A stretch of DNA of 64,000 bases from Pyrinomonadaceae bacterium (GCA_035601415.1 DATNOG010000113.1:1890-65889); one strand, 5' to 3'; counted from the stretch's first letter, positions 28,372-57,427 are shown. The notes: generated by a model from the sequence alone, not told the origin. Numbers and translations are program-made.

Positions 28372-28776
28372 CTACAGCATCAGAGCCTCTAACATCCCAT
28401 AAGAATCCGCCATCGCCCAGATCCGGTAAGTCGTCCTTGATGAGGCGAAAGTTTGGTTTTCCCCTGAGGCGGTGGCGTCTTGCTCGCTTTTAAGTCGCTT
28501 CCTAAAATCTTTCAAAGCTGCAGCGGCGCTCTCTTCGGTGTCATATTCGTTGACGGCCACTCTGACAATGACATTGCCTGCTTCCCACTGATCGACAATA
28601 ACGTTCTTGCTCCCCTCGATTGGGGTCACAGAATGGTGGGTCCAACCAGGCATGTTATCGCCGATCTTATCCGTCAAGCTCTGTTTCAACTTATCGAGCT
28701 TTTCAGAATTTCTTTGCGCTTGCACTGCTCCGGTGAGCAGTAACATAACCAACAAGCCAATGGAAAGTTTTTTCAT
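28372..28776 (-). CDS. secreted hypothetical protein
   Basis: 134 aa. Signal peptide MKKLSIGLLVMLLLTGAVQAQ. Lower-GC region. Confidence 0.55.
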   Translation of the reverse strand: MKKLSIGLLVMLLLTGAVQAQRNSEKLDKLKQSLTDKIGDNMPGWTHHSVTPIEGSKNVIVDQWEAGNVIVRVAVNEYDTEESAAAALKDFRKRLKSEQDATASGENQTFASSRTTYRIWAMADSYGMLEALML

Positions 28777-28829
28777 GGATCCACCTCAGTCGTCGTCATT
28801 CGTAATAACTCTGAAGCCTGGCTCTCGGT

Positions 28830-29378
28830 CTAGCAGTCTTGCTCAAGAACTTCAAATAGCAATTCCTCGGAATCAACACTCCAGGCGCCTCTTATTGCGA
28901 ACCGGTGTCGATTGATCAACTTATATGATCCCGGCAGCAGTGGCTCATACCAATCAGTTAGCCTCAGCGCATCTAACTCTTCTGTCGCAGCAGGTTCGAG
29001 TATGAATCCCCGTATACTGATGATAGTACCCGGATCTCTTTCCCGCGAGTCAACAAGCTTCGCGGTGTCTCTACGATAAGGAATCAGCTTGCCTTCCTTA
29101 TATAATTGCGGGCGATTCTGATAATAAGTGTCGAACATCAGCACCCTTATCTCGGAATTTGAATTGTTGGTTACCAGAATTTTGAACAGTGGCTTATTAC
29201 AGACGCGGTACGGCTCGTGTTTTGGTCCGGGTTGAACGTTAATAGGCACCATCCGCAACCTTACCTCTGAGACATCTTGCGATGATGCTAGCTCGGCTAC
29301 GTTTTTTTCCTGCAAATTCGGTAACATAAAACTAAGCCCGATCAGACTTAAACTAAGAAAAGAAGTGATTGTCGACAT
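28830..29378 (-). CDS. secreted hypothetical protein
   Basis: 182 aa. Hydrophobic N-terminus ITSFLSLSLIGLSFMLP. Lower-GC region. Confidence 0.55.
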   Translation of the reverse strand: MSTITSFLSLSLIGLSFMLPNLQEKNVAELASSQDVSEVRLRMVPINVQPGPKHEPYRVCNKPLFKILVTNNSNSEIRVLMFDTYYQNRPQLYKEGKLIPYRRDTAKLVDSRERDPGTIISIRGFILEPAATEELDALRLTDWYEPLLPGSYKLINRHRFAIRGAWSVDSEELLFEVLEQDC

Positions 29379-29482
29379 CGTAGTTCTCCAAACTGTGACC
29401 TATTAAGGAAGATTAGCTAATTATTTCTGATGCCCTGAATCTCTAAAGGCGTGTTCCTTTCATGTTTCTTAGGACCAATCCG

Positions 29483-31802
29483 TCAAAAACGATCTCGGTA
29501 TTCAGTTGAAAGCAGGAACGCGTTTATAATGTTATTGTATTTACCGTCACCTGCGTCCGGGTTTGTGCTATCAAGCACACCGACCCAATAGTTGAACCCG
29601 TCCCAGTTATTGTCGGGTGGAGCATTCGGCTCTCTCCGCAAAAATCCATTATAGCAGGCATATACGAATGCCTCGTTATAAGCGTGAGTACCGCGCTGGC
29701 CACCAAGCGCGGGGTGCAGTTGTATAAAGTCACCGGAGTAAAAGAAAGCTCTGGCAACATCGACGCGCTTAGTGCCCACGCAGTTCATATCGAAGGCACA
29801 CTGCGTGATGTTATACCTCCAATAGTTGAGACCACCCTGGTCGGGATCTCGGCGGAGAAAATCCGAGTATAGTTTCGTAACAAAATAGCGGGAGCCATCA
29901 ATCGAATTGTTAGTAACCGTCGTACCTTCGCAAGTCTGGTAGTTTATGTCATGAACGTTAGTCGAGGTTGACTGTATAGAATTAGTTCCGGTGGCGTTAA
30001 TGGGCAGTCCGGGCGTACTAGTGAAGTCGCGGCGATAAAGCGATGGGCTAATGTAATAATTGAAGCTAACCTGGCCACCCCAATTCCATGCCAGCCGAGC
30101 GTAGGGGTTGCCCGATCCTGAAAGAGCCATAGCTCTTTGAAAAGTCGGGTGTAGTGGATCCCCAATAAAGTAGAACACATAGGTTTCGAAATACTCCGAA
30201 ACGAAGAAAGCATCGTAGAAATTAGAGCCGAACTCGATGGACTCCCCAGGGGGATCAAAGTTGCCCATAGTAAGGGTAGTGCCCTCGGAGAAGTACCGAA
30301 CCGGATGACCGGGTTGGTTGACGAGATTGCTATCCAATTGCCAACCTGAATCAAAATTTGATTGGGGACTTCGGTGCGTGAAACATTGCGTATTTCCGCC
30401 TGTAATTGGAACGCCATTAATAACGATACTATCGCCGAGCAGGCGCTTGCGAAAAGTATTTATTACTTGCACAAACTTGATCCCGCTTTGTGCCAGGTCC
30501 GAAAGATACGGTCCCGAAGGTATTTGTGTTGTGGAGTTCCAGATAATACCGTCGTCTGCGGTGCCGGCCCAACATCCGAGCGTATAAGTCGACCCATTTA
30601 AAAATGAACAGCCGGAGTTCCTGTTTGCTTGGTCGGAAGCAACGCTTACAGCAGAGAAACTAGTGAGTAAGGGCAAGACAACAGTTACATCCACAAAGCC
30701 GGATGTGCTAGCACCATTTTTTGTATAGGTCACTGTTGCGCGATAAGTTCCTGTTTGATTCCAGCGAACGGCGACCGACGACTGGTTGATTCCGGTCGTG
30801 ATTGTAGGCGAACCTGTAAACGTCCATGCGTAAGTACCGCCCGCAAAGCCCGACGGAACAGGAGTAGCGTTTAGAGCTACGTCTGCAGCAAGCAGTGCAT
30901 TTTGCGTCGTCCCATTCAAGTATCCACCGACGCGCGCGCTTGTGATTTTGATATCTGAAGGAATCGTGAAGGTAAAATCGTCGAATCCTATTCCCAAAGG
31001 ATCATTAATTCCACGAATTACGACTTTGCTAATATCGGTCAATGATCCCAGATTAACACCGACTGTACGAGTGCCATTTCCGTAAACCGGATAGGTGGCG
31101 TACAGGGCGCTATTCCTGTAGACATCGAGAATTGAAAATTGGTTAAAAAACGCATCCACTCCAATCATGTAGAACGTCAGGTTGCTGACGGGTTGCGTGA
31201 ATTCAACAGTAGTTTGTCCGGCATCGTCTGGCTTGGTAACTATGTAATTTGGAGGCGAAGTAGTAGAACACGGACCGCAGTTCTGGTAGGTATGCACAGG
31301 ATAGAAAGAATTGCCGGAGTAAAACCTTACACCGTACTGACTGAGATATTGATCGGCAACGACGGTGTTGTTCGGTAGCTCATCGAAATTAATTCTCGCA
31401 GGCAGAGATACTGAGTCAACTGTGACAAAGCTCTGCGATGAGCCCCAGTTTCCATTGCTTTCAGAAACATACAACGTAACCGTATAGGCACCGTTAGCGT
31501 TGTATTGGTGACTCGGGTTTGGACCGCTGCCCCAAGTGTCGTCACCGAAGTCCCAGTAGTATCCGTCGATCCATCCGTCGTCACCAGTCCAGGATCCGCC
31601 GCCGTCAAGCGAGATGCTCTGCCCGGTCATGCCCAACGTAAGGTCCACCGGAAACGGCCGTCGGTGATTGGTACGTACCTCCACAATTATCGCAGACACT
31701 CTGACCAGCGACGGACGACGTTCCCAAAATAAAATATAAGCCGCAACCAACGATAAGAACTATGATTAAGCGCAAGAGTGAACAACAGTCTGCAAGGCGC
31801 AT
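29483..31802 (-). pseudogene. secreted PKD-domain / DUF4214-repeat protein, apparently frameshifted near 31625-31640 (or an assembly error)
   Basis: The main 755-aa frame (29483-31750) has no signal peptide. It carries a PKD core (DGYYWDFGDDTWGSGPNPSHQYNANGAYTVTLYV) and two DUF4214-like repeats (LYSDFLRRDPDQGGLNYW; CYNGFLRREPNAPPDNNWDGFNYW). The signal peptide and the start of the PKD domain (MRLADCCSLLRLIIVLIVGCG..SPTAVSGGPYVG) lie in a different frame, 31605-31802. Confidence 0.6.
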
Positions 31803-32036
31803 GAGAAACCTTTCGCAGAAGAAAGATTGAGTTTTAGCTAACAGGAGTGAGGCTCTGAGGAGCGGGACTCTTGTTAACGCAATGCAAGGACAACAAAAAC
31901 CTAATCGATGAGAACGCCCGCACTCTACTCCCAGCAGTAGTAGCTGTCAATGAAAGATTTCTTGTATTTATTCTAGAAAATGCTGAAAGCCTTTGTGTGT
32001 GCTTGCCGAGCAGAAGCCGACTGAGTTCGGCAGTAA

Positions 32037-32495
32037 TTAAAAGCCGCGCGAGCTGCACATCGCGCAATGATCGCAGGGTTTGCCGCCCGGCTCGACGCTG
32101 CATATTTTTTCTTTTTCGAAAAAGTCTACCAGTTCTGTAACCGTCGCTTCTTCGACGCCGAATTTTTCCTGACTCGGATGTGAATAGGAACTATTGATGC
32201 CTGCCAACCAGGGTGAATGGGTTGTGGGTGTCGTTCGCGCGGGGTTCGACAAACTTGCGGTGTTCGACAAACTTAAGTTTGTCGGACTGGTAACCGGACT
32301 GTTACCTGGGGGTGAAATCTTCGCTTCTAACTGAGAAATCTTTCTTTGCAGTTCACTGAGCCCGGCGCGCACGGCAGCGAGTTCTGAACTCATTTCGCCG
32401 GTTTGTTGTGTACGGATTGACGGCGAACTTTCGGCAGAAACGCGCCGAGCGATTCTTTCCGCTATCTCACGAGCTTGATCTTGTTCCGTGGACAT
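32037..32495 (-). CDS. BMC-locus-associated hypothetical protein: N-terminal amphipathic helix, coiled coil, S/T/P-rich linker, C-terminal C-x8-C-x2-C-x2-C motif
   Basis: Start trimmed to ATG 32495 (MSTEQDQAREIAERIARRV); the ORF-track extension reads through a REPIN doublet. The C-terminus is ICSVEPGGKPCDHCAMCSSRGF. Confidence 0.6.
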   Translation of the reverse strand: MSTEQDQAREIAERIARRVSAESSPSIRTQQTGEMSSELAAVRAGLSELQRKISQLEAKISPPGNSPVTSPTNLSLSNTASLSNPARTTPTTHSPWLAGINSSYSHPSQEKFGVEEATVTELVDFFEKEKICSVEPGGKPCDHCAMCSSRGF

Positions 32496-32501
32496 TTCTT
32501 T

Positions 32502-32572
32502 GTAGGACAGGCATTCCTGCCTGTCCAAATCTTCGCTATCAACAACTGGACAGACAGGAATGTCTGTCCTAC
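32502..32572. repeat. REPIN-like doublet (GGACAG hairpin family) filling the intergenic gap
   Basis: gtaggacaggcattcctgcctgtcc (32502-26), 21 bp, ggacagacaggaatgtctgtcctac (32548-72). Confidence 0.85.
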
Positions 32573-32844
32573 TACGCCAAGTCGATACGATCGACGACGC
32601 CAACGATCGCTGAATCAATAGCAGCCTGTGGCTTGCCGGTCGCGACAGTTGAAGCGCTCCAACCTTCCTGCACTATCAAAACTATATCGCCAACGCCCGA
32701 ATCAACCGCGTCGAGTGCCAACACAGTATAGGCCGTCTCTTCGCCTTCAGGTGTTATCTGTTGGCAAAGCATTATCCGCGCATTTTCGTAGCGCTGGTTT
32801 TTTTGCGAAGCGACAACGTTGCCTAACACTTTGGCTAGAATCAT
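32572..32844 (-). CDS. BMC-P pentameric vertex shell protein (EutN/CcmL family), paralog 3
   Basis: 90 aa: MILAKVLGNVVASQK..LALDAVDSGVGDIVLIVQEG..AIVGVVDRIDL. Confidence 0.88.
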   Translation of the reverse strand: MILAKVLGNVVASQKNQRYENARIMLCQQITPEGEETAYTVLALDAVDSGVGDIVLIVQEGWSASTVATGKPQAAIDSAIVGVVDRIDLA

Positions 32845-32854
32845 TTCTCTTGGT

Positions 32855-32951
32855 CCGTTGTCAGTTGTTAGTTGTTAGTTGTTCGGATCGTCTTTAACTG
32901 TGCAAAAACAACTAGCAACTGACTACTGACCACTGATTACTGACGACTGAC
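32855..32951. repeat. heptad inverted-repeat element (GTYAGTN family) between BMC-P paralogs 2 and 3
   Basis: Left arm ccgttgtcagttgttagttgttagttgttcgg. Right arm caactagcaactgactactgaccactgattactgacgactgac, which runs into the last codons (..VSRQ*) of the upstream BMC-P gene. Confidence 0.8.
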
Positions 32952-33212
32952 ATGCGCATCCGAATCGACGATGCCGATGATTGTGCAGTCTGTGGGCGTA
33001 TCTTCCCGTTTGAAAGGAAAGCTGGCCTCTTTTCCGCGGCACCAAAAAACCAACTCGCCAACTCCGGCGCCAACGGCATCAATCGCCACCATCGGTTTTC
33101 CGTTCGGCTGAAGGTCTTTATTTAAAGTTTGCACGACCAGCAGCTTGCGACCTTCAAGCGATTCATTCTTGATCGTTGCTACTACAGTGCCGATGACGCG
33201 TGCCAGTTGCAT
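32937..33212 (-). CDS. BMC-P shell protein (EutN/CcmL family), paralog 2
   Basis: Start trimmed to ATG 33212: MQLARVIGTVVATIKNESLEGRKLLVVQ..AIDAVGAGVGELVFW..IIGIVDS. Confidence 0.88.
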   Translation of the reverse strand: MQLARVIGTVVATIKNESLEGRKLLVVQTLNKDLQPNGKPMVAIDAVGAGVGELVFWCRGKEASFPFKREDTPTDCTIIGIVDSDAHVSRQ

Positions 33213-33213
33213 T

Positions 33214-33343
33214 GTTCGTGAACTGTGAACCGTGAACAGTAAACTGATAGGTATCCCAGGCACTGCGCAGTCGCTAAAAGCTTGATATGAATCCTGGTTT
33301 CCAGTTCCCGTTTTCAGTTCACTGTTCACTGTTCCCGGTTTAC
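33214..33343. repeat. heptad inverted-repeat element (GTGAACN family) between BMC-P paralogs 1 and 2
   Basis: Left arm gttcgtgaactgtgaaccgtgaacagtaaactg. Right arm ccagttcccgttttcagttcactgttcactgttcccggtttac. Confidence 0.8.
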
Positions 33344-33615
33344 TCCGGTTTCGCTATATCCACCGTATCGATCACGCCAACGATGGCCGCGTCGACGGGA
33401 GTATCTTTCATGCCTTGCGCCAGGCGTGCGCTCGAGCCCGCGACCACCAGCACGCGTTCATGAAAGCCGGCGCCGACAGTATCGACAGCAACCACATAAC
33501 CGGTCGTGTCGCTACCATCCACGTTAATCGGACGCACGATCAGCAGTTTCTTGCCCAGCAATCGTTCGTCCTTCTGTGATGAAACTACAGTTCCGAGAAT
33601 ACGCGCGATGATCAT
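33340..33615 (-). CDS. BMC-P shell protein (EutN/CcmL family), paralog 1
   Basis: 91 aa: MIIARILGTVVSSQKDERLLGKKLLIVRP..AVDTVGAGFHERVLVVAGS..AIVGVIDTVDI. Starts 2 nt after the BMC-H stop. Confidence 0.9.
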   Translation of the reverse strand: MIIARILGTVVSSQKDERLLGKKLLIVRPINVDGSDTTGYVVAVDTVGAGFHERVLVVAGSSARLAQGMKDTPVDAAIVGVIDTVDIAKPE

Positions 33616-33617
33616 GC

Positions 33618-33899
33618 TTAGCCGCGATTGCCGATTGGAAGCGCATCGTCAACACTGCCGTGTGGACGCGGAATCACATGCACGCTGACCAACTCGCCTA
33701 CGCGCCGGGCAGCGGCCGCACCGGCATCGGTGGCAGCTTTAACCGCAGCGACGTCACCGCGCACGATTGCGGTAACAAAGCCCGCGCCAATTTTTTCATA
33801 GCCGATAAGCGTTACGTTCGCGGCCTTGACCATCGCGTCAGCTGCTTCGATCATGGCGACCAGACCTTTAGTTTCAACCATACCGAGTGCTTCTTGCAT
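33618..33899 (-). CDS. BMC-H hexameric shell protein (PduA/EutM/CcmK family)
   Basis: 93 aa: [89 protein letters not shown]. Confidence 0.95.
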
Positions 33900-33917
33900 T
33901 CAGTTGCTCCTTTAACT

Positions 33918-34104
33918 CGTGAATCGTAAATCGTGAATAGTAGTTGACTGTTAGATTACTCTGTTTCGTCAATTTGAACTAGTTGTACTTCTTAACTACC
34001 CCGGTATTCTTTGGATCTAACATCCAAGACATCGTAATCCTTTTCCGTTAGGTTCTAATCTTCCTTTGAACTATTTACGATTTACGATTTACGATTCACG
34101 AATG
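33918..34104. repeat. heptad inverted-repeat element (GTGAATC/GTAAATC family) with a ~115-bp centre, between the aldolase and BMC-H genes
   Basis: Left arm cgtgaatcgtaaatcgtgaatagtagttgactgttag. Right arm ctatttacgatttacgatttacgattcacgaatg. Confidence 0.8.
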
Positions 34105-34114
34105 TATTCACCAT

Positions 34115-34951
34115 CTACCAGACATTCCCGCCGCGCGTCTGAGTAAGAGCCAACGCGAGCAATTCCATCAACTCTTCTCTCGTCAACGTAATTTTTCCGG
34201 CACCGTTTGCCGGCGTTGAGTTTGGGTAAACAGTGGGGGCCGGACGGTCACCGGTGGGGCATGCCAACTGCGTTTCATGCAGATAACCACAAGCCTGGCA
34301 GCGCGCGCCCTCGCCCAGATAACCGGCGGCTTCACGCACGTTGATTAATTTTTCAATAGCGTCGGCCGGCAAATTCTTCGAGCCCCCGAGCATCCTCGCG
34401 AGAATCGCAATGCGCGCCGTGTGTTCCAGTGTCTCCAGCCGATCGAACGCTTGCCAAAGATCTGAACCGTAAGCCACCGCGCCGTGGTTCGCCATCAGCA
34501 ATGCGTTGTGATGTTTCACCAACGGCCGCATTGCTTCGGTTAGTTCGTCGGTTGAAGGCGTACCGTAGGCTGCAAGTGGAACGCAGCCTAGTGTCAGAAT
34601 AACTTCCGATAGAATCGGCTGATCGATTGGCAAACCTGCGACTGCGAAAGCAGTCCCGTGCGGCGGATGCGCATGACACACAGCTTTAACATCAGGACGT
34701 TCCTGATAAATCAACAGGTGCATGGCCAACTCACTCGACGGTTTTCGCTGGGTCAACGCTTTCCCGGACGCATCCGTGATCGCCAGCGAGTCTTCGCTCA
34801 TGCGGCCCTTGCAGATCATGGTCGGCGTCGCCACGATGCGGCCATCATCGAGGAGCACACTGACGTTGCCGTCTGACGAAACGACGTAACTGCGTTCGTA
34901 CAGCAACTGGCCAATGCGGCAAATGTCGCGCCTTGCGGTTTGCTCGTCCAT
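34115..34951 (-). CDS. class II aldolase/adducin-family protein (fuculose/rhamnulose-phosphate aldolase-like) with a ~65-aa C-terminal extension
   Basis: Start trimmed to ATG 34951 (MDEQTARRDICRIG). Metal-site region VCHAHPPHGTAFA. C-terminal tail ..KITLTREELMELLALALTQTRGGNVW. Confidence 0.85.
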   Translation of the reverse strand: MDEQTARRDICRIGQLLYERSYVVSSDGNVSVLLDDGRIVATPTMICKGRMSEDSLAITDASGKALTQRKPSSELAMHLLIYQERPDVKAVCHAHPPHGTAFAVAGLPIDQPILSEVILTLGCVPLAAYGTPSTDELTEAMRPLVKHHNALLMANHGAVAYGSDLWQAFDRLETLEHTARIAILARMLGGSKNLPADAIEKLINVREAAGYLGEGARCQACGYLHETQLACPTGDRPAPTVYPNSTPANGAGKITLTREELMELLALALTQTRGGNVW

Positions 34952-34980
34952 AACTAATCTTGTTTCGCTTGAGGCCCGAA

Positions 34981-35044
34981 GCTCAGAGTCCAAGCTTTAG
35001 CTTGCCGTGTCGAGTCCACGCAACCTACAGGTTGTACTCTCAAC
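34981..35044. repeat. 65-bp palindromic element, copy A (GAGTACAACC..AAGCTAAAGCTTG..)
   Basis: Reverse complement gagtacaacctgtaggttgcgtggactcgacacggcaagctaaagcttggactctgagc aligns with 36611-36676. Confidence 0.7.
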
Positions 35045-35046
35045 TA

Positions 35047-35754
35047 CTACAACTCCTGCTCGTTGACTTCGTTCAATTCTTCAAACTGCTGCTTGCGCTG
35101 GCGCGTTGTAGTGACTTTAGACTGCGGTCGCGCCAGGAAATAAGACAGAGACTCGAGTGAAGTTGTCAGATCCACCGTCTTCACTTTCACATCAAGGCGC
35201 GCGCTGAGCGGCGCCGGCGCGAAATTCAAAATCGCCTTAATGCCCGCTGACATGATTTGGTTGAGAACTTTTTGCGCCACGCGCGCGGGGACCGCGATGA
35301 CCATTACGTCGATCGATTCCTGCTTGACCACGAGCGGCATCTCTCTTACGTCGTGGATTGCTATCTCGTCTTCACCAACGCGGCGTCCGATTTTCGTTTC
35401 GTCGTTATCGAAAATTGCGACTACAGTGAAGTTTGATTTTGAGAACCCCCGATAGTTCGCCAGCGCTGTGCCCAAGCGTCCCGCGCCGACAATGCCAACC
35501 CGATGCGGCTTGTCCAATCCGAGAATGTTTGTGATGTATTCGCGCAAATCGGCGACGTAATAGCCAACACCGCGTACACCAAACTCGCCAAAGTAGCCCA
35601 AATCCTTCCTGATTTGCGCAGAGTTCAGGTTGAACTGTTCTGCCAGCGCCTGTGACGAGATGGTTTTGATGCCGGCCGCAGCGAGCGTGTTCAGGCAGCG
35701 CAGATAAACGCTCAATCGATTCGTAGTCAACTCTGAAATTTTCTCTGATTTCAT
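35047..35754 (-). CDS. rex: redox-sensing transcriptional repressor Rex
   Basis: 235 aa: RLSVYLRCL..ISSQALAEQFNLNSAQIRKDLGYFGEFGVRGVGY..VGIVGAGRLG. Confidence 0.9.
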   Translation of the reverse strand: MKSEKISELTTNRLSVYLRCLNTLAAAGIKTISSQALAEQFNLNSAQIRKDLGYFGEFGVRGVGYYVADLREYITNILGLDKPHRVGIVGAGRLGTALANYRGFSKSNFTVVAIFDNDETKIGRRVGEDEIAIHDVREMPLVVKQESIDVMVIAVPARVAQKVLNQIMSAGIKAILNFAPAPLSARLDVKVKTVDLTTSLESLSYFLARPQSKVTTTRQRKQQFEELNEVNEQEL

Positions 35755-35793
35755 TTCGAGGGCCTGGCAGTAAGTATAGACCCAATGTGAAAT

Positions 35794-35897
35794 AGTTTCG
35801 AGTTTCGAGTTTAGAGTGTCGGGTATCAGGTGTCAGGTGCCAGGTGTCTGTTTGATTCCTGCCTGAACCCGATACCTGACACCTGATACCCGACACC
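35794..35897. repeat. heptad inverted-repeat element (AGTTTCG + GGTRYCA family) in the rex|ruvA divergent gap
   Basis: Left arm agtttcgagtttcgagtttagagtgtcgggtatcaggtgtcaggtgccaggtgtc. Right arm cccgatacctgacacctgatacccgacacc. Confidence 0.8.
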
Positions 35898-35912
35898 CTG
35901 CCTGGAAGCAGC

Positions 35913-35941
35913 TTGGAACTGTCGCCTCCATCAACTACAAT
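35913..35941 (+). promoter_or_regulatory. candidate ruvA promoter
   Basis: TTGGAA-17 nt-TACAAT, 40 nt upstream of the ruvA ATG. Confidence 0.45.
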
Positions 35942-35981
35942 CGCCTTCGTTAACGTCATTGCTCAGTCAGACCTTTCTTCA

Positions 35982-36608
35982 ATGATCGCACATTTGTCGG
36001 GCACGCTTCTTTCCAAACAGCCAAACTCGGTGATTCTGGACGTCGCTGGAGTTGGCTATGAAGTAAACATTCCTATCTCCACATTCTATGATCTCGAAGA
36101 CGCGGGTTCGAATGTGCAGCTTCGCATCTACACCCACGTGCGCGAGGATGCACTGCAACTTTATGGCTTCAAAACCGCGCGTGAACGTGAACTGTTCCTG
36201 CGCTTGATCTCAGTCAGCGGCATTGGACCACGGCTGGGTATCACGCTGTTGTCGGGAATGAGCGCAGACGAAATGATTGCCTCGATCAGGACAAACAACC
36301 TGGCGCGTTTGACGTTGATTCCCGGCGTGGGACGTAAAACTGCCGAGCGTCTTGTGATGGAGTTGCGCGATAAAGTCGCTTCGCTCTCCTCGGCAGAACT
36401 TGAAGAGGAATTGGGCGCGAGAACGGAAACAGGCGCGCCAGTTTTGACTGAAGATTCCATGCACGCCGATGTGCTATCCGCGCTTGTGAACCTGGGCTAC
36501 CAGCGTAACGCTGCGGAAAAAGCGGTGACTGCTGCAATTGATGAAGGCGGCGATATCTCTGTGGAGTTGATCTTGCGGCGCAGCTTGCGCAAGCTGGCTA
36601 AGGTCTAG
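35982..36608 (+). CDS. ruvA: Holliday junction DNA helicase subunit RuvA
   Basis: MIAHLSGTLLSKQPNSVILDVAGVGYEVNIP..ISVSGIGPRLG. Start trimmed to ATG 35982. Confidence 0.92.
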   Translation: MIAHLSGTLLSKQPNSVILDVAGVGYEVNIPISTFYDLEDAGSNVQLRIYTHVREDALQLYGFKTARERELFLRLISVSGIGPRLGITLLSGMSADEMIASIRTNNLARLTLIPGVGRKTAERLVMELRDKVASLSSAELEEELGARTETGAPVLTEDSMHADVLSALVNLGYQRNAAEKAVTAAIDEGGDISVELILRRSLRKLAKV

Positions 36609-36610
36609 AA

Positions 36611-36676
36611 GTTTGGAGTACAACCTTCAGGTTCCTAACTGGTGGGCGTACTCAAGCTAAAGCTTGTACTCTGAGC
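36611..36676. repeat. 65-bp palindromic element, copy B (inverted relative to copy A)
   Basis: gtttggagtacaaccttcaggttcctaactggtgggcgtactcaagctaaagcttgtactctgagc in the ruvA|ruvB gap. Confidence 0.7.
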
Positions 36677-36687
36677 TGCTGAATACT

Positions 36688-37728
36688 ATGTCAATTGAAC
36701 AACCAGCACGCGTTCGTGACACGCCACTCAGCGACGATGAACGTCAGTTTGAGCTGACCGTTCGTCCGGCCAAACTTGCTGAATACATCGGGCAGCGACA
36801 AGTCAAAGACAATCTGCGCATTTACATGAAGGCGGCGCTCATCAGAAAAGAAGCGCTGGACCACGTGCTGTTAACGGGCCCGCCGGGCCTGGGCAAAACA
36901 ACTCTCGCCAACATCATCGCCAACGAAATGGGTGCGGAACTGCGCTCGACTGCCGGTCCGGCAATTGAAAAAGCCGGAGACATCGCTGCCCTGCTGACAA
37001 ATCTCCAGGAAGGCGACGTACTCTTCATCGACGAGATCCATCGCTTGCTGCCGGCGCTCGAGGAAAAACTTTATCCGGCAATGGAAGACTATCAACTCGA
37101 TTTGTTGATTGGTCAGGGCGCGGGCGCGCGTTCGATAAAACTCGAGTTGCCAAAATTCACATTAGTAGGCGCTACCACGCGCGCCGGTTTACTTACGGCG
37201 CCGCTGCGCGGCCGTTTTGGCATTGTCTTTCATCTGGATTTCTATCCCCATGAAGATCTGGAAATCATTTGCAGACGATCAGCGCAGATTTTGGGAGTGG
37301 AAATCGACGAAGACGGCGCGCGCGAGATTGCACGGCGCTCGCGCGGCACGCCGCGCATCGTTAATCGCTTGCTGCGTCGCGTTCGAGATTATGCGCAGGT
37401 TGATTATGACGGCAGGATTACGCAGGCAGTCGCCAACGACGCGCTTAATCGCATGGAAGTTGACACGTTCGGTCTTGATGAAATGGACCGCAAGCTGCTA
37501 TTCACCATTATTGAGAAATTTAACGGCGGGCCGGTAGGCCTGGGGACAATCTCCGCCTCCATCCATGAAGAAAAAGATTCAATTGAAGAAATTATTGAGC
37601 CTTATCTCATCCAAATAGGCTTTCTTGATCGCACGCCGCGCGGCCGCATGGCGACGCGTCTTGCTTACGATCATTTTGGTATCTCACCTACCTCTTCGCT
37701 CAAGCCCAGCCTGTTCGATTCCCAGTGA
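36688..37728 (+). CDS. ruvB: Holliday junction branch-migration ATPase RuvB
   Basis: [20 protein letters not shown]. Start set at ATG 36688; the ORF-track TTG at 36664 lies inside the repeat. Confidence 0.93.
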
Positions 37729-56548: not shown

Positions 56549-57427
56549 TTAGATAAGCCAGTCGCGCGTGACATCGCACCATAGGACCAGGCCGCGCCAT
56601 TCATTGAATCGTGAGTAGTAACGAGCGATCTTTTTGTCGCTCGCCTTACGGCCGTTGTTTCGCACCGTGAAAAATTTTGCGCGCGTCCAGGAATCAAGTG
56701 CGAGCCCGTCGTAGCGGCCGAGAAGTTTGAGAAGATTCTCAGCCGCATATGGACCAACACCCTTGACGCCTCGCATTTCCCTTATCAGTTCCGCTGTTGC
56801 CAGTGGACTGTGAAGCCACTGCTCCACATTCAGATTGCCAGACGCAACTCGATCCGCAAGTTCTTTAAAATAGGGAGCGCGGTAACCTGCGCGTACTTCA
56901 TTGGTATAAAACTTCAAAGGCATCAGGGCCATCGCCTCGGGGGTGGGAAAAGTACGGCGACCATCGTTTGATTCGCGTCCCAGATTTTGCACCAGCCCGT
57001 TCACCATTTTTTCGGTCAGGGCCCACGAACAATTCGTGGTGCAAATCATCTTTACCAGGTCTTCGAAAACCGTCGGCGAGCGCAGCATCCGGCCTGCGCC
57101 CTGGCTGGCCACCCATGCGAATTCGTTTTCCCGGGCCATCAACCCGTAGAACCCAGCCATGTCGTCATCCAGTCGCAGCATGTGACGAACGTCAGAGATT
57201 ACTTGTTTGGTGGCTTTTTGACTGATACGGCGCGACGTGCTGATACGCAACTGCCGGTTGCGGGCGCTGATCTCAAGCGTAACCGGTTTGTCCCTCTTCA
57301 GATCCAGCACCCGTCGCAGAATCCATTTGTCTCGGTCTATTTCAAACGGCAACAGTTCGCACCAGCCGTGGCTGATGGCCGTGCGCTTGAAACTGAAGTC
57401 GCGGGGTGTAGAAATCGCCAATTCCAT
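56549..57427 (-). CDS. HhH-GPD superfamily DNA glycosylase (AlkA / 3-methyladenine glycosylase II-like)
   Basis: 292 aa: LVKMICTTNCSW.., helix-hairpin-helix MRGVKGVGPYAAENLLKLLGRYDGLALDSW. Confidence 0.75.
   Translation of the reverse strand: MELAISTPRDFSFKRTAISHGWCELLPFEIDRDKWILRRVLDLKRDKPVTLEISARNRQLRISTSRRISQKATKQVISDVRHMLRLDDDMAGFYGLMARENEFAWVASQGAGRMLRSPTVFEDLVKMICTTNCSWALTEKMVNGLVQNLGRESNDGRRTFPTPEAMALMPLKFYTNEVRAGYRAPYFKELADRVASGNLNVEQWLHSPLATAELIREMRGVKGVGPYAAENLLKLLGRYDGLALDSWTRAKFFTVRNNGRKASDKKIARYYSRFNEWRGLVLWCDVTRDWLI

Follow-up and report, generated by a model that had tools for sequence, protein, structure and literature searches.

We analysed a 64,000-nucleotide stretch of DNA from a Pyrinomonadaceae bacterium (hereafter the window), which carries a compact bacterial-microcompartment (BMC) cluster. 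A sequence-only reading had listed Rex, a class II aldolase, one BMC-H, three BMC-P and a Cys-motif protein (here CysP). All seven genes were confirmed, on the minus strand and at or near the coordinates first given for them, and all except the Cys-motif protein had strong Pfam or NCBIfam matches. The features are collected in Table 1, together with an aldehyde dehydrogenase (AldDH) that the same genome carries on another contig, C239. The genome assembly is ~95% complete (3.66 Mb), and genome-wide absences given below apply to the assembled part.

Table 1. Features of the microcompartment cluster in the window and the aldehyde dehydrogenase on contig C239
Feature	Position	Strand	Basis
Promoter-like site TCGAAA-17-TATACT, upstream of rex	35773..35801	-	Consensus scan
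rex, redox-sensing (NADH/NAD+) transcriptional repressor, first gene	35047..35754	-	PF06971 and PF02629; NCBIfam Rex equivalogs
Class II (FucA/OtnC-like) aldolase-family signature enzyme, 278 aa	34115..34951	-	PF00596, E 1e-45
BMC-H hexamer shell protein (H1)	33618..33899	-	PF00936, E 8e-31
BMC-P pentamer paralog 1	33340..33615	-	PF03319, E 1.5e-29
BMC-P pentamer paralog 2	32937..33212	-	PF03319, E 2e-31
BMC-P pentamer paralog 3	32572..32844	-	PF03319, E 6e-21
CysP, 152 aa	32037..32495 (most likely extent)	-	C-terminal Cys motif alignment
Terminator-like hairpin and T-run, overlapping the CysP end	32034..32067	-	Consensus scan only
AldDH, 621 aa	C239 7627-9492		CoA-acylating type by TIGR02518, PDB 5j78 and motif

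The Rex protein matched its family (NCBIfam PRK05472) over its full length, with an N-terminal winged-helix and a Rossmann NAD(H) domain, and scored above threshold with four NCBIfam Rex models (NF003993, 248 bits, threshold 217; NF003992, 233 bits, threshold 226). H1 scored 143 bits with the NCBIfam EutM model (cut-off 133 bits) and carries the usual motifs D-x3-K (KAANV) and PRPH (IPRPH). The BMC-P paralogs, counting a fourth (P4) on C239, share a mutual identity of only 31-42%. The start of paralog 2 was placed at the ATG at 33212; in the longer, GTG-started ORF, which reaches to 33329, the Pfam domain begins at residue 40, and neither this boundary nor the orthologues support the longer reading. 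The hairpin and T-run at the end of CysP likely mark the end of the operon. No further conserved ORFs were found in the main locus.

The aldolase ORF spans 34115-34993, and its orthologues begin with MDEQTAR, corresponding to the ATG at 34951. An 80-sequence alignment revealed a tail of ~80 aa, in which a family-conserved CQACGYLHETQLxCP motif is followed by a variable linker and a conserved KIxLTREELxELL helix; this helix is a candidate encapsulation peptide (EP). CysP, which had no Pfam or NCBIfam match, begins with a conserved amphipathic helix, AREIAERIARRV, also a candidate EP. A second, long helix and a low-complexity linker come next, and the C-terminal domain, which is conserved, closes with CxxEPGGKPCDHCxMCSSRGF. 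Alignment of its homologues showed that C132, C141, C144, C147, H106 and H143 are invariant. AlphaFold2 modelling with 36 homologues gave confident helices at residues 3-22 and 31-60, and the Cys domain had a pLDDT of ~55-65. Pfam searches with the C-terminal domain of CysP, the terminal domain of AldDH and the aldolase tail returned nothing significant.

The sequence-only reading had stated that the locus holds no aldehyde dehydrogenase or PduL. The window indeed lacks both, and PduL (PF06130) was not found anywhere in the assembled genome, but a genome search for further shell genes, AldDH and PduL recovered an AldDH on C239, between a second BMC-H (H2) and P4. This protein scored 589 bits with TIGR02518, matched PDB 5j78 (E 4e-145) and carries the motif FDNGTICASEQ; by these matches it is CoA-acylating. 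Its tail consists of an EP-like helix, INREEIAAIVDHFLAG, a P/Q-rich linker and a terminal domain of ~45 aa. The C239 locus also encodes an ACT-domain protein whose N-terminus is extended by an EP-like segment. In relatives, this satellite is ordered H2-AldDH-P4-ACT-ZnRib-DUF711-H3; the placement of AldDH between a BMC-H and a BMC-P is kept in the four fully examined relatives and across 22 genera of Pyrinomonadaceae. The ZnRib-DUF711-H3 stretch falls in an assembly gap in this genome, and we infer a third BMC-H here from the relatives. Among the genomes searched, the module of EP-like ACT, Zn-ribbon and DUF711 occurred only in Pyrinomonadaceae.

The other enzymes of a metabolosome core were sought across the genome. 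Acetate kinase was not found in it, and an iron-dependent alcohol dehydrogenase (Fe-ADH) was represented by one borderline match only. The single-copy Pta on contig C9 was rejected as an organelle enzyme, since it has no extension and lies among cell-envelope genes. The proposed absence of BMC-T was borne out: none lies in the window, and the two PF00936 matches of the genome are both single-domain. No hydroxyacid dehydrogenase (pfam00389/02826) was found between rex and lemA, here or in ~76 related loci, and the sole strong 2-Hacid_dh match in the genome is SerA, adjoining SerC. This enzyme is present in distant loci of the type discussed below (L114, L115, L116 and L123). In some relatives (L065), the aldolase and BMC-H are separated by additional genes; considered as hydroxyacid dehydrogenases, these proved to be unrelated secreted proteins.

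We compared these findings with the ACI microcompartment catalogued by Sutter, Melnicki, Schulz, Woyke & Kerfeld (2021, Nat Commun 12:3809, Supplementary Data 2; PMC8217296). In the catalogue's text, its hosts are Acidobacteria, mainly of subdivisions 4 and 6. The ACI main locus comprises a pfam00596 aldolase with a C-terminal EP, a contiguous BMC-P triplet from the catalogue's green, grey and orange clades, and at least one BMC-H with standard motifs, along with a small protein of ~80 aa with an N-terminal EP and conserved Cys (PMC8217296). AldDH is consistently encoded on a satellite locus, its EP, near the C-terminus, preceding a domain of ~50 aa; it is sometimes joined there by a fourth BMC-P and a BMC-H, and the components include no phosphotransacylase (PTAC) (PMC8217296). 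The catalogue's HMM table also includes an ACT-domain HMM for ACI/MIC3 (PMC8217296).

As far as the catalogue's text describes the type, the present genome agrees with it in its acidobacterial host, the aldolase with a candidate C-terminal EP, the BMC-P triplet, the BMC-H with standard motifs, and CysP with its EP-like N-terminal helix and conserved C-terminal cysteines. It also agrees in the satellite AldDH, which has an EP-like helix and a terminal domain and is joined by P4 and an extra BMC-H, and in the lack of a PTAC in the assembled genome. The C-terminal motif C..EP...C..C..C.S.G[FHY]* of CysP recurs in mini-proteins of distant ACI loci, and by this motif CysP corresponds, in a longer form, to the small ACI Cys protein. 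Several differences were also evident. ACI main loci list a hydroxyacid dehydrogenase and two homologue-less proteins, one with three conserved histidines (PMC8217296), and all three are absent from the main locus here. Moreover, CysP, at 152 aa, is about twice the ~80 aa given there, rex is the first gene, and the family's satellite runs on with Zn-ribbon, DUF711 and the third BMC-H.

The window locus is the main locus under the catalogue's definition, because BMC-H and BMC-P are both present, and we read it as a reduced form because the hydroxyacid dehydrogenase, a common ACI component in the catalogue's text, is missing. Judged from gene content, the cluster is highly likely to be the main locus of an ACI-type BMC in the reduced form typical of Pyrinomonadaceae. 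The gene order Rex-Ald-H-P-P-P-CysP was kept in ~76 of the 80 related species defined by the best 80 aldolase relatives (78-95% identity; Pyrinomonadaceae, Blastocatellia or Acidobacteriota MAGs), and the core Ald-H-P-P-P in 14 of 16 sampled loci of other acidobacterial families. BMC-P genes were present in all 28 sampled Pyrinomonadaceae genomes; ACI BMCs occurred in every sampled genome of this family and in roughly half (205/401) of the Acidobacteriota genomes covered. Pyrinomonadaceae correspond to Acidobacteria subdivision 4. The locus is ordinary for its lineage, the ACI organelle type having been catalogued in 2021 from soil Acidobacteria (PMC8217296); the window yields no new kind of organelle and is minor as a discovery.

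The sequence-only reading had taken the BMC-P triplet with a class II aldolase as the hallmark of the Planctomycetes-Verrucomicrobia fucose/rhamnose compartment (PVM or PVM-like) and the cluster as possibly its satellite. PVM does share the aldolase signature enzyme, the triplet and an acylating AldDH that acts after the aldolase, but the combination is not specific to it and defines ACI in Acidobacteria (PMC8217296). In PVM, the PTAC (PvmB), further core enzymes and the AldDH (PvmJ) stand in the main locus, and none of this holds here. The host belongs to a different phylum, PduL/PTAC and acetate kinase were not found in a ~95% complete genome, Fe-ADH has only its borderline match and BMC-T is absent, whereas the ACI-specific Cys protein is present and the satellite AldDH bears an EP-like helix and a tail of ~50 aa as the catalogue's text gives for ACI (PMC8217296). 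We therefore regard a PVM-type metabolosome as extremely improbable. The expectation that partner enzymes lie elsewhere was right with respect to the AldDH on C239, but the roles were reversed: the window holds the main locus and the AldDH locus is the satellite. Nor is C239 a second main locus with the full enzyme set, as it carries the AldDH alone of those enzymes. A minimal compartment of shell and aldolase without an aldehyde-oxidising step could be imagined from the window, where the aldolase is the sole recognisable enzyme; this idea is refuted by the acylating AldDH with its EP-like helix between BMC-H and BMC-P, an arrangement conserved in relatives, and retains a barely perceptible likelihood. 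The two further types named with ACI in the catalogue's text also differ, MIC3 being planctomycetal with BMC-T proteins and HO myxobacterial. According to that text, the AldDH of ACI is related only to that of MIC3, and HO type I likewise keeps an aldolase and two BMC-P on a separate locus (PMC8217296).

A separate alternative accepts the ACI organelle but reads the "aldolase" as a decarboxylase of the OtnC kind, or as some other enzyme with the class II aldolase fold, so that the substrates would be of another class, for example oxo-tetronate or other acid-sugar phosphates. The best NCBIfam match was indeed OtnC (3-oxo-tetronate 4-phosphate decarboxylase) at 148 bits, above FucA at 104 bits; the nearest PDB entries were 6voq/6vop, ahead of FucA; and other ACI loci carry a hydroxyacid dehydrogenase. 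The OtnC score is nevertheless far under that model's 250-bit cut-off, and a decarboxylase giving DHAP would leave the conserved acylating AldDH without an aldehyde. The catalogue's text also places the ACI enzyme closest to the HO and MIC3 aldolases (PMC8217296). We consider this alternative improbable and retain the ACI aldolase reading.

We then considered the leading rex gene. It is single copy in the genome, with ruvA on one side and the BMC operon on the other. It heads the operon in 76 of 80 related loci, directly upstream of the aldolase on the same strand, with a median gap of ~18 nt (at most 31 nt in 48 of the 76 loci), and the window has no terminator-like site between the two genes. 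A TATACT -10 box ~20-25 nt upstream of the rex ATG was conserved in nearly all of the ~75 aligned orthologous upstream regions. We conclude that the operon is very probably transcribed with rex as its leading gene. The "Rex" and Rex Pfam names are absent from the catalogue's supplementary text, its locus diagrams being images outside a text search (PMC8217296), and no description of a rex-BMC operon linkage was found in the literature searched. Within the catalogue's text, there is no description of the leading rex, the missing hydroxyacid dehydrogenase or the ACT-Zn-ribbon-DUF711 module (PMC8217296).

The tight, conserved linkage suggests Rex redox control of the organelle, as the sequence-only reading had proposed, but the operators it expected upstream of rex did not appear in canonical form at the locus. 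Published Rex regulons give the operator consensus TTGTGAA-N4-TTCACAA. No such site was found at the locus and none with up to one mismatch in the whole assembled genome, a difference from known Rex systems. The shorter TGTGA-N6-TCACA, with up to one mismatch, gave one chance-level match in the window, at 57181, far from the locus. Across 75 orthologous rex upstream regions the best operator matches had 4-7 mismatches, and the ~75 aligned regions contained no conserved palindrome, only the promoter elements TTACCA / TATACT. Consistent with these results, rex could be a syntenic passenger, serving as the cell's general redox regulator with the organelle outside its control; rex is missing from ACI loci of other families, and in some of those genomes it is missing altogether. 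Against this stand the same-strand position directly upstream of the aldolase, the short gaps and the uninterrupted junction, and a shared transcript would at least couple the amount of Rex to expression of the organelle. We give the passenger explanation about an even chance.

Under the ACI reading, the shell would be built from BMC-H and three divergent BMC-P, with the aldolase and CysP as candidate cargo through their EP-like helices, and the satellite would supply the acylating AldDH, H2, P4 and the ACT-domain protein. Inside the shell, the substrate of the aldolase may be a ketose 1-phosphate or deoxyketose 1-phosphate, cleaved to DHAP plus a short aldehyde, which AldDH would trap as acyl-CoA, yielding NADH. 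The usual recycling enzymes, PduL or an EP-bearing alcohol dehydrogenase, do not appear to be encoded, which would make this a metabolosome with an incomplete core, as the catalogue's text gives for ACI (PMC8217296).

ACI microcompartments are widespread in Acidobacteriota and may bear on soil carbon turnover. A complete parts list, main locus and satellite, is now given for one genome, and it offers three leads for ACI biochemistry: the leading rex, the ACT/DUF711 module in the satellite and the loss of the hydroxyacid dehydrogenase. It is conceivable, though on present evidence rather unlikely, that the Pyrinomonadaceae organelle has been rewired, with the operon driven from the rex promoter and gated by Rex through a non-canonical operator, and with the ACT/DUF711 pair as cargo. 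If so, organelle synthesis would follow the NADH/NAD+ ratio, which fits an NADH-producing compartment without an internal NAD+ recycler, and the uncharacterised UPF0237 (ACT) / UPF0210 (DUF711) pair, recruited via the EP-like ACT extension, would gain its first functional context.

Positions 35754 to 32037 of the window hold seven minus-strand genes. The analysis bore out the sequence-only reading of these as Rex, a class II aldolase, one BMC-H (H1), three BMC-P (P1-P3) and a final Cys-motif gene (CysP), with small changes of start codon; the aldolase opens with MDEQTAR in 79 of 79 orthologues, placing the start codon at ATG 34951. The best 80 aldolase relatives, drawn from species-representative genomes, share 78-95% identity and are all MAGs labelled Pyrinomonadaceae, Blastocatellia, Chloracidobacterium, Acidobacteriota or "bacterium", indicating, on this aldolase evidence, that the host is an acidobacterium of subdivision 4. 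A 2021 catalogue of bacterial microcompartments (Sutter et al. 2021, PMC8217296) describes an Acidobacteria type, ACI, with 125 loci found in Acidobacteria only, mainly in subdivisions 4 and 6. Its components include a pfam00596 aldolase bearing an encapsulation peptide (EP) at its C-terminus, a hydroxyacid dehydrogenase, a side-by-side BMC-P triplet with one or more BMC-H, three homologue-less proteins, and an aldehyde dehydrogenase (AldDH) occasionally accompanied by a fourth BMC-P and another BMC-H. All of these items were matched in the window's genome, G000, except the hydroxyacid dehydrogenase and two of the homologue-less proteins. The finding is real and already accounted for: the locus is a member of this published type in a family-specific reduced arrangement.

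The G000 assembly comprises 3.66 Mb in 242 contigs and is 95% complete. The proposed genome-wide check for PF00936, PF03319, AldDH and PduL revealed one further shell locus: outside the window, PF00936 and PF03319 each matched at one further place, in both cases on contig C239 (10.6 kb), which also carries an AldDH. The claim that neither AldDH nor PduL is present holds within the window; in the 95% complete assembly as a whole, no PduL-type phosphotransacylase was found, and an AldDH lies on C239. The PF00936 profile search of the assembly found no BMC-T, extending the same claim made for the window. Acetate kinase and an EP-tagged alcohol dehydrogenase were likewise not found in the assembly, where the sole Fe-ADH match was borderline and SerA, adjoining SerC, was the only strong 2-Hacid_dh match. 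The C239 AldDH is of the CoA-acylating kind, as indicated by 589 bits to TIGR02518, a match to PDB 5j78 (E 4e-145) and the active-site motif FDNGTICASEQ. In its tail, an amphipathic INREEIAAIVDHFLAG segment and a P/Q-rich linker precede a ~45-aa terminal domain.

Genes of the microcompartment locus in the window and of the satellite locus on contig C239
Feature	Position	Strand	Evidence or remark
rex	window 35047-35754	-	PF06971 + PF02629; score exceeds the cut-offs of four NCBIfam Rex models
Class II aldolase	window, ATG 34951	-	PF00596, E 1e-45; ORF extendable to TTG 34993
BMC-H (H1)	window 33618-33899	-	PF00936, E 8e-31
BMC-P x3 (P1-P3)	window 33340-33615, 32937-33212, 32572-32844	-	PF03319, E 1e-29 to 6e-21
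CysP	window, start at 32495	-	product most likely the 152-aa protein from MSTEQDQ; without family match
IMPDH + HTH_25 protein	C239	one strand, opposite to BMC genes	
BMC-H (H2)	C239 7150-7548	opposite to IMPDH	C-terminal extension
AldDH	C239 7627-9492	same as H2	621 aa
Fourth BMC-P (P4)	C239 9594-9923	same as H2	
ACT-domain protein	C239 10006-10485	same as H2	159 aa; contig end 114 nt beyond

Four relatives whose contigs are long show the satellite order H2-AldDH-P4-ACT-Zn-ribbon-DUF711-(small protein)-H3, where H3 is a third BMC-H, with genes for a response regulator, histidine kinase and desaturase 3' of it. Contig C28 of G000 starts with exactly the same three genes, its first base falling inside the response regulator, and synteny with the four relatives indicates that the end of C239 and the start of C28 are neighbours. 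Because C28 opens in this way and DUF711 has no match anywhere in the G000 assembly, ~3.3 kb with the Zn-ribbon, DUF711, small-protein (a predicted lipoprotein) and H3 genes most likely lies in the C239/C28 assembly gap.

The ACT protein of the satellite (UPF0237-type) has a 70-aa N-terminal extension relative to the 90-aa PRK00194 model. The extension is made up of a variable linker together with two helices, EELIYRITRAVYGRLG and EQLVTDIYRAIEP, that are conserved, and looks like an encapsulation-peptide layout. Of 30 genera in the window's family, 22 have this extended protein (loci L128-L149); it was not detected in 24 genomes belonging to other acidobacterial families. It lies directly 3' of P4, with (Zn-ribbon)-DUF711 following, in 21 of the 22 loci; the upstream sequence of the 22nd was not recovered. 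In the available parts of the ACI catalogue (PMC8217296), the HMM table holds one ACT model named for ACI/MIC3, and the text does not mention DUF711.

The aldolase and CysP are candidate cargo. Alignment showed that the aldolase ends in a conserved KIxLTREELxELL beyond a variable linker. Its nearest matches are OtnC-like proteins (6voq, E 1e-33), with FucA next, and it scores 148 bits with the NCBIfam OtnC model, against a cut-off of 250. Compared by eye with E. coli FucA, it keeps SSE, HAHPPHG and ANHG, the FucA-type Zn/phosphate motifs. At residues ~217-231 (34240-34300) its tail also carries CQACGYLHETQLxCP, which is conserved in the family, absent from more distant ACI aldolases and only weakly similar to a rubredoxin knuckle. 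The N-terminal part of CysP contains a conserved AREIAERIARRV helix (AF2 helix 3-22, pLDDT >80), followed by a second, confidently predicted helix (31-60), a low-complexity linker and a C-terminal domain in which C132, C141, C144, C147, H106 and H143 are invariant in the alignment. Among 16 loci from other families, L119, L123 and L124 encode a mini-protein ending in C.IEPxxxCxxCGYCxSxG[HY], a C-terminal motif that is the window's CSVEPGGKPCDHCAMCSSRGF. The aldolase tail motif and CysP together suggest that the cargo may bind metal.

The gene order QueA-YihY-RuvB-RuvA, divergent Rex-Ald-H-P-P-P-CysP, then LemA was observed in ~76 of 80 species loci. PF03319 was detected in 205 of 401 sampled genomes of the phylum and in all 28 sampled from the window's family, mostly in three copies, and the Ald-H-P-P-P core was kept in 14 of the 16 other-family loci. 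Four of these 16 (L114, L115, L116 and L123) have a 2-hydroxyacid dehydrogenase directly 3' of the BMC-P triplet but the window does not, so by gene content the window is the ACI core without the dehydrogenase. Between CysP and lemA (28372-31750), the window holds three secreted-protein genes (134 aa, 182 aa and a 755-aa PKD/DUF4214 protein) with a lower G+C of 47-49%; lemA directly follows CysP in most relatives, and the same insert was seen only in L013, L045 and L057.

The rex gene is single-copy in G000 and lies directly upstream of the aldolase on the same strand in 76 of 80 loci, with a median gap of ~18 nt (<=31 nt in 48 of the 76). The gap in the window is 95 nt and contains no terminator-like site. 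Nearly all aligned orthologous upstream regions have a TATACT -10 box ~20-25 nt ahead of the rex start codon, often with a TTACCA -35. Given the short same-strand gap, the lack of a terminator-like site and the conserved -10 box, rex and the organelle genes are very likely co-transcribed. Among the sampled ACI loci, rex is confined to the window's family and a single sister family (L120), and ruvA adjoins the aldolase directly in three other families (L112, L122 and L126), with ruvB also present in L112 and L126; this comparison indicates that rex is a lineage-specific insertion. Three of five examined genomes with rex-less ACI loci lack rex altogether. A divergent ruvA stands next to the ACI aldolase in L112, L122, L126, L120 and the window (35913-37728), accompanied by ruvB in all of these except L122, where only ruvA was seen; in L120 and the window's family, rex separates ruvA from the aldolase.

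The Rex operators expected upstream of rex and the aldolase did not materialise: canonical boxes were found neither at the locus nor in orthologous promoters, nor genome-wide in G000 with <=1 mismatch. Rex might, hypothetically, control the organelle. Inverted repeats, composed of tandem heptamers or hairpin units, fill most of the operon's spacers at 33218-33343 (P1|P2), 33913-34101 (Ald|H), 35813-35899 (upstream of rex) and 32491-32583 (P3|CysP), and GAAACTC-type heptamer runs likewise precede rex in many related species. These repeats may be transcript-processing or attenuation elements, or a genome-wide repeat family.

G000 encodes the shell gene set plus four proteins bearing EP-like helices, two of them enzymes. 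By general metabolosome knowledge, the aldolase would cleave a ketose 1-phosphate to DHAP and an aldehyde, the shell would keep the aldehyde inside, and the acylating AldDH would convert it to acyl-CoA, with NADH made. The hydroxyacid dehydrogenase, judged from gene content, is lost in this lineage. To the published ACI type, our analysis adds the placement of the AldDH satellite in the same genome, the probable assembly gap and a phylum-wide comparison.
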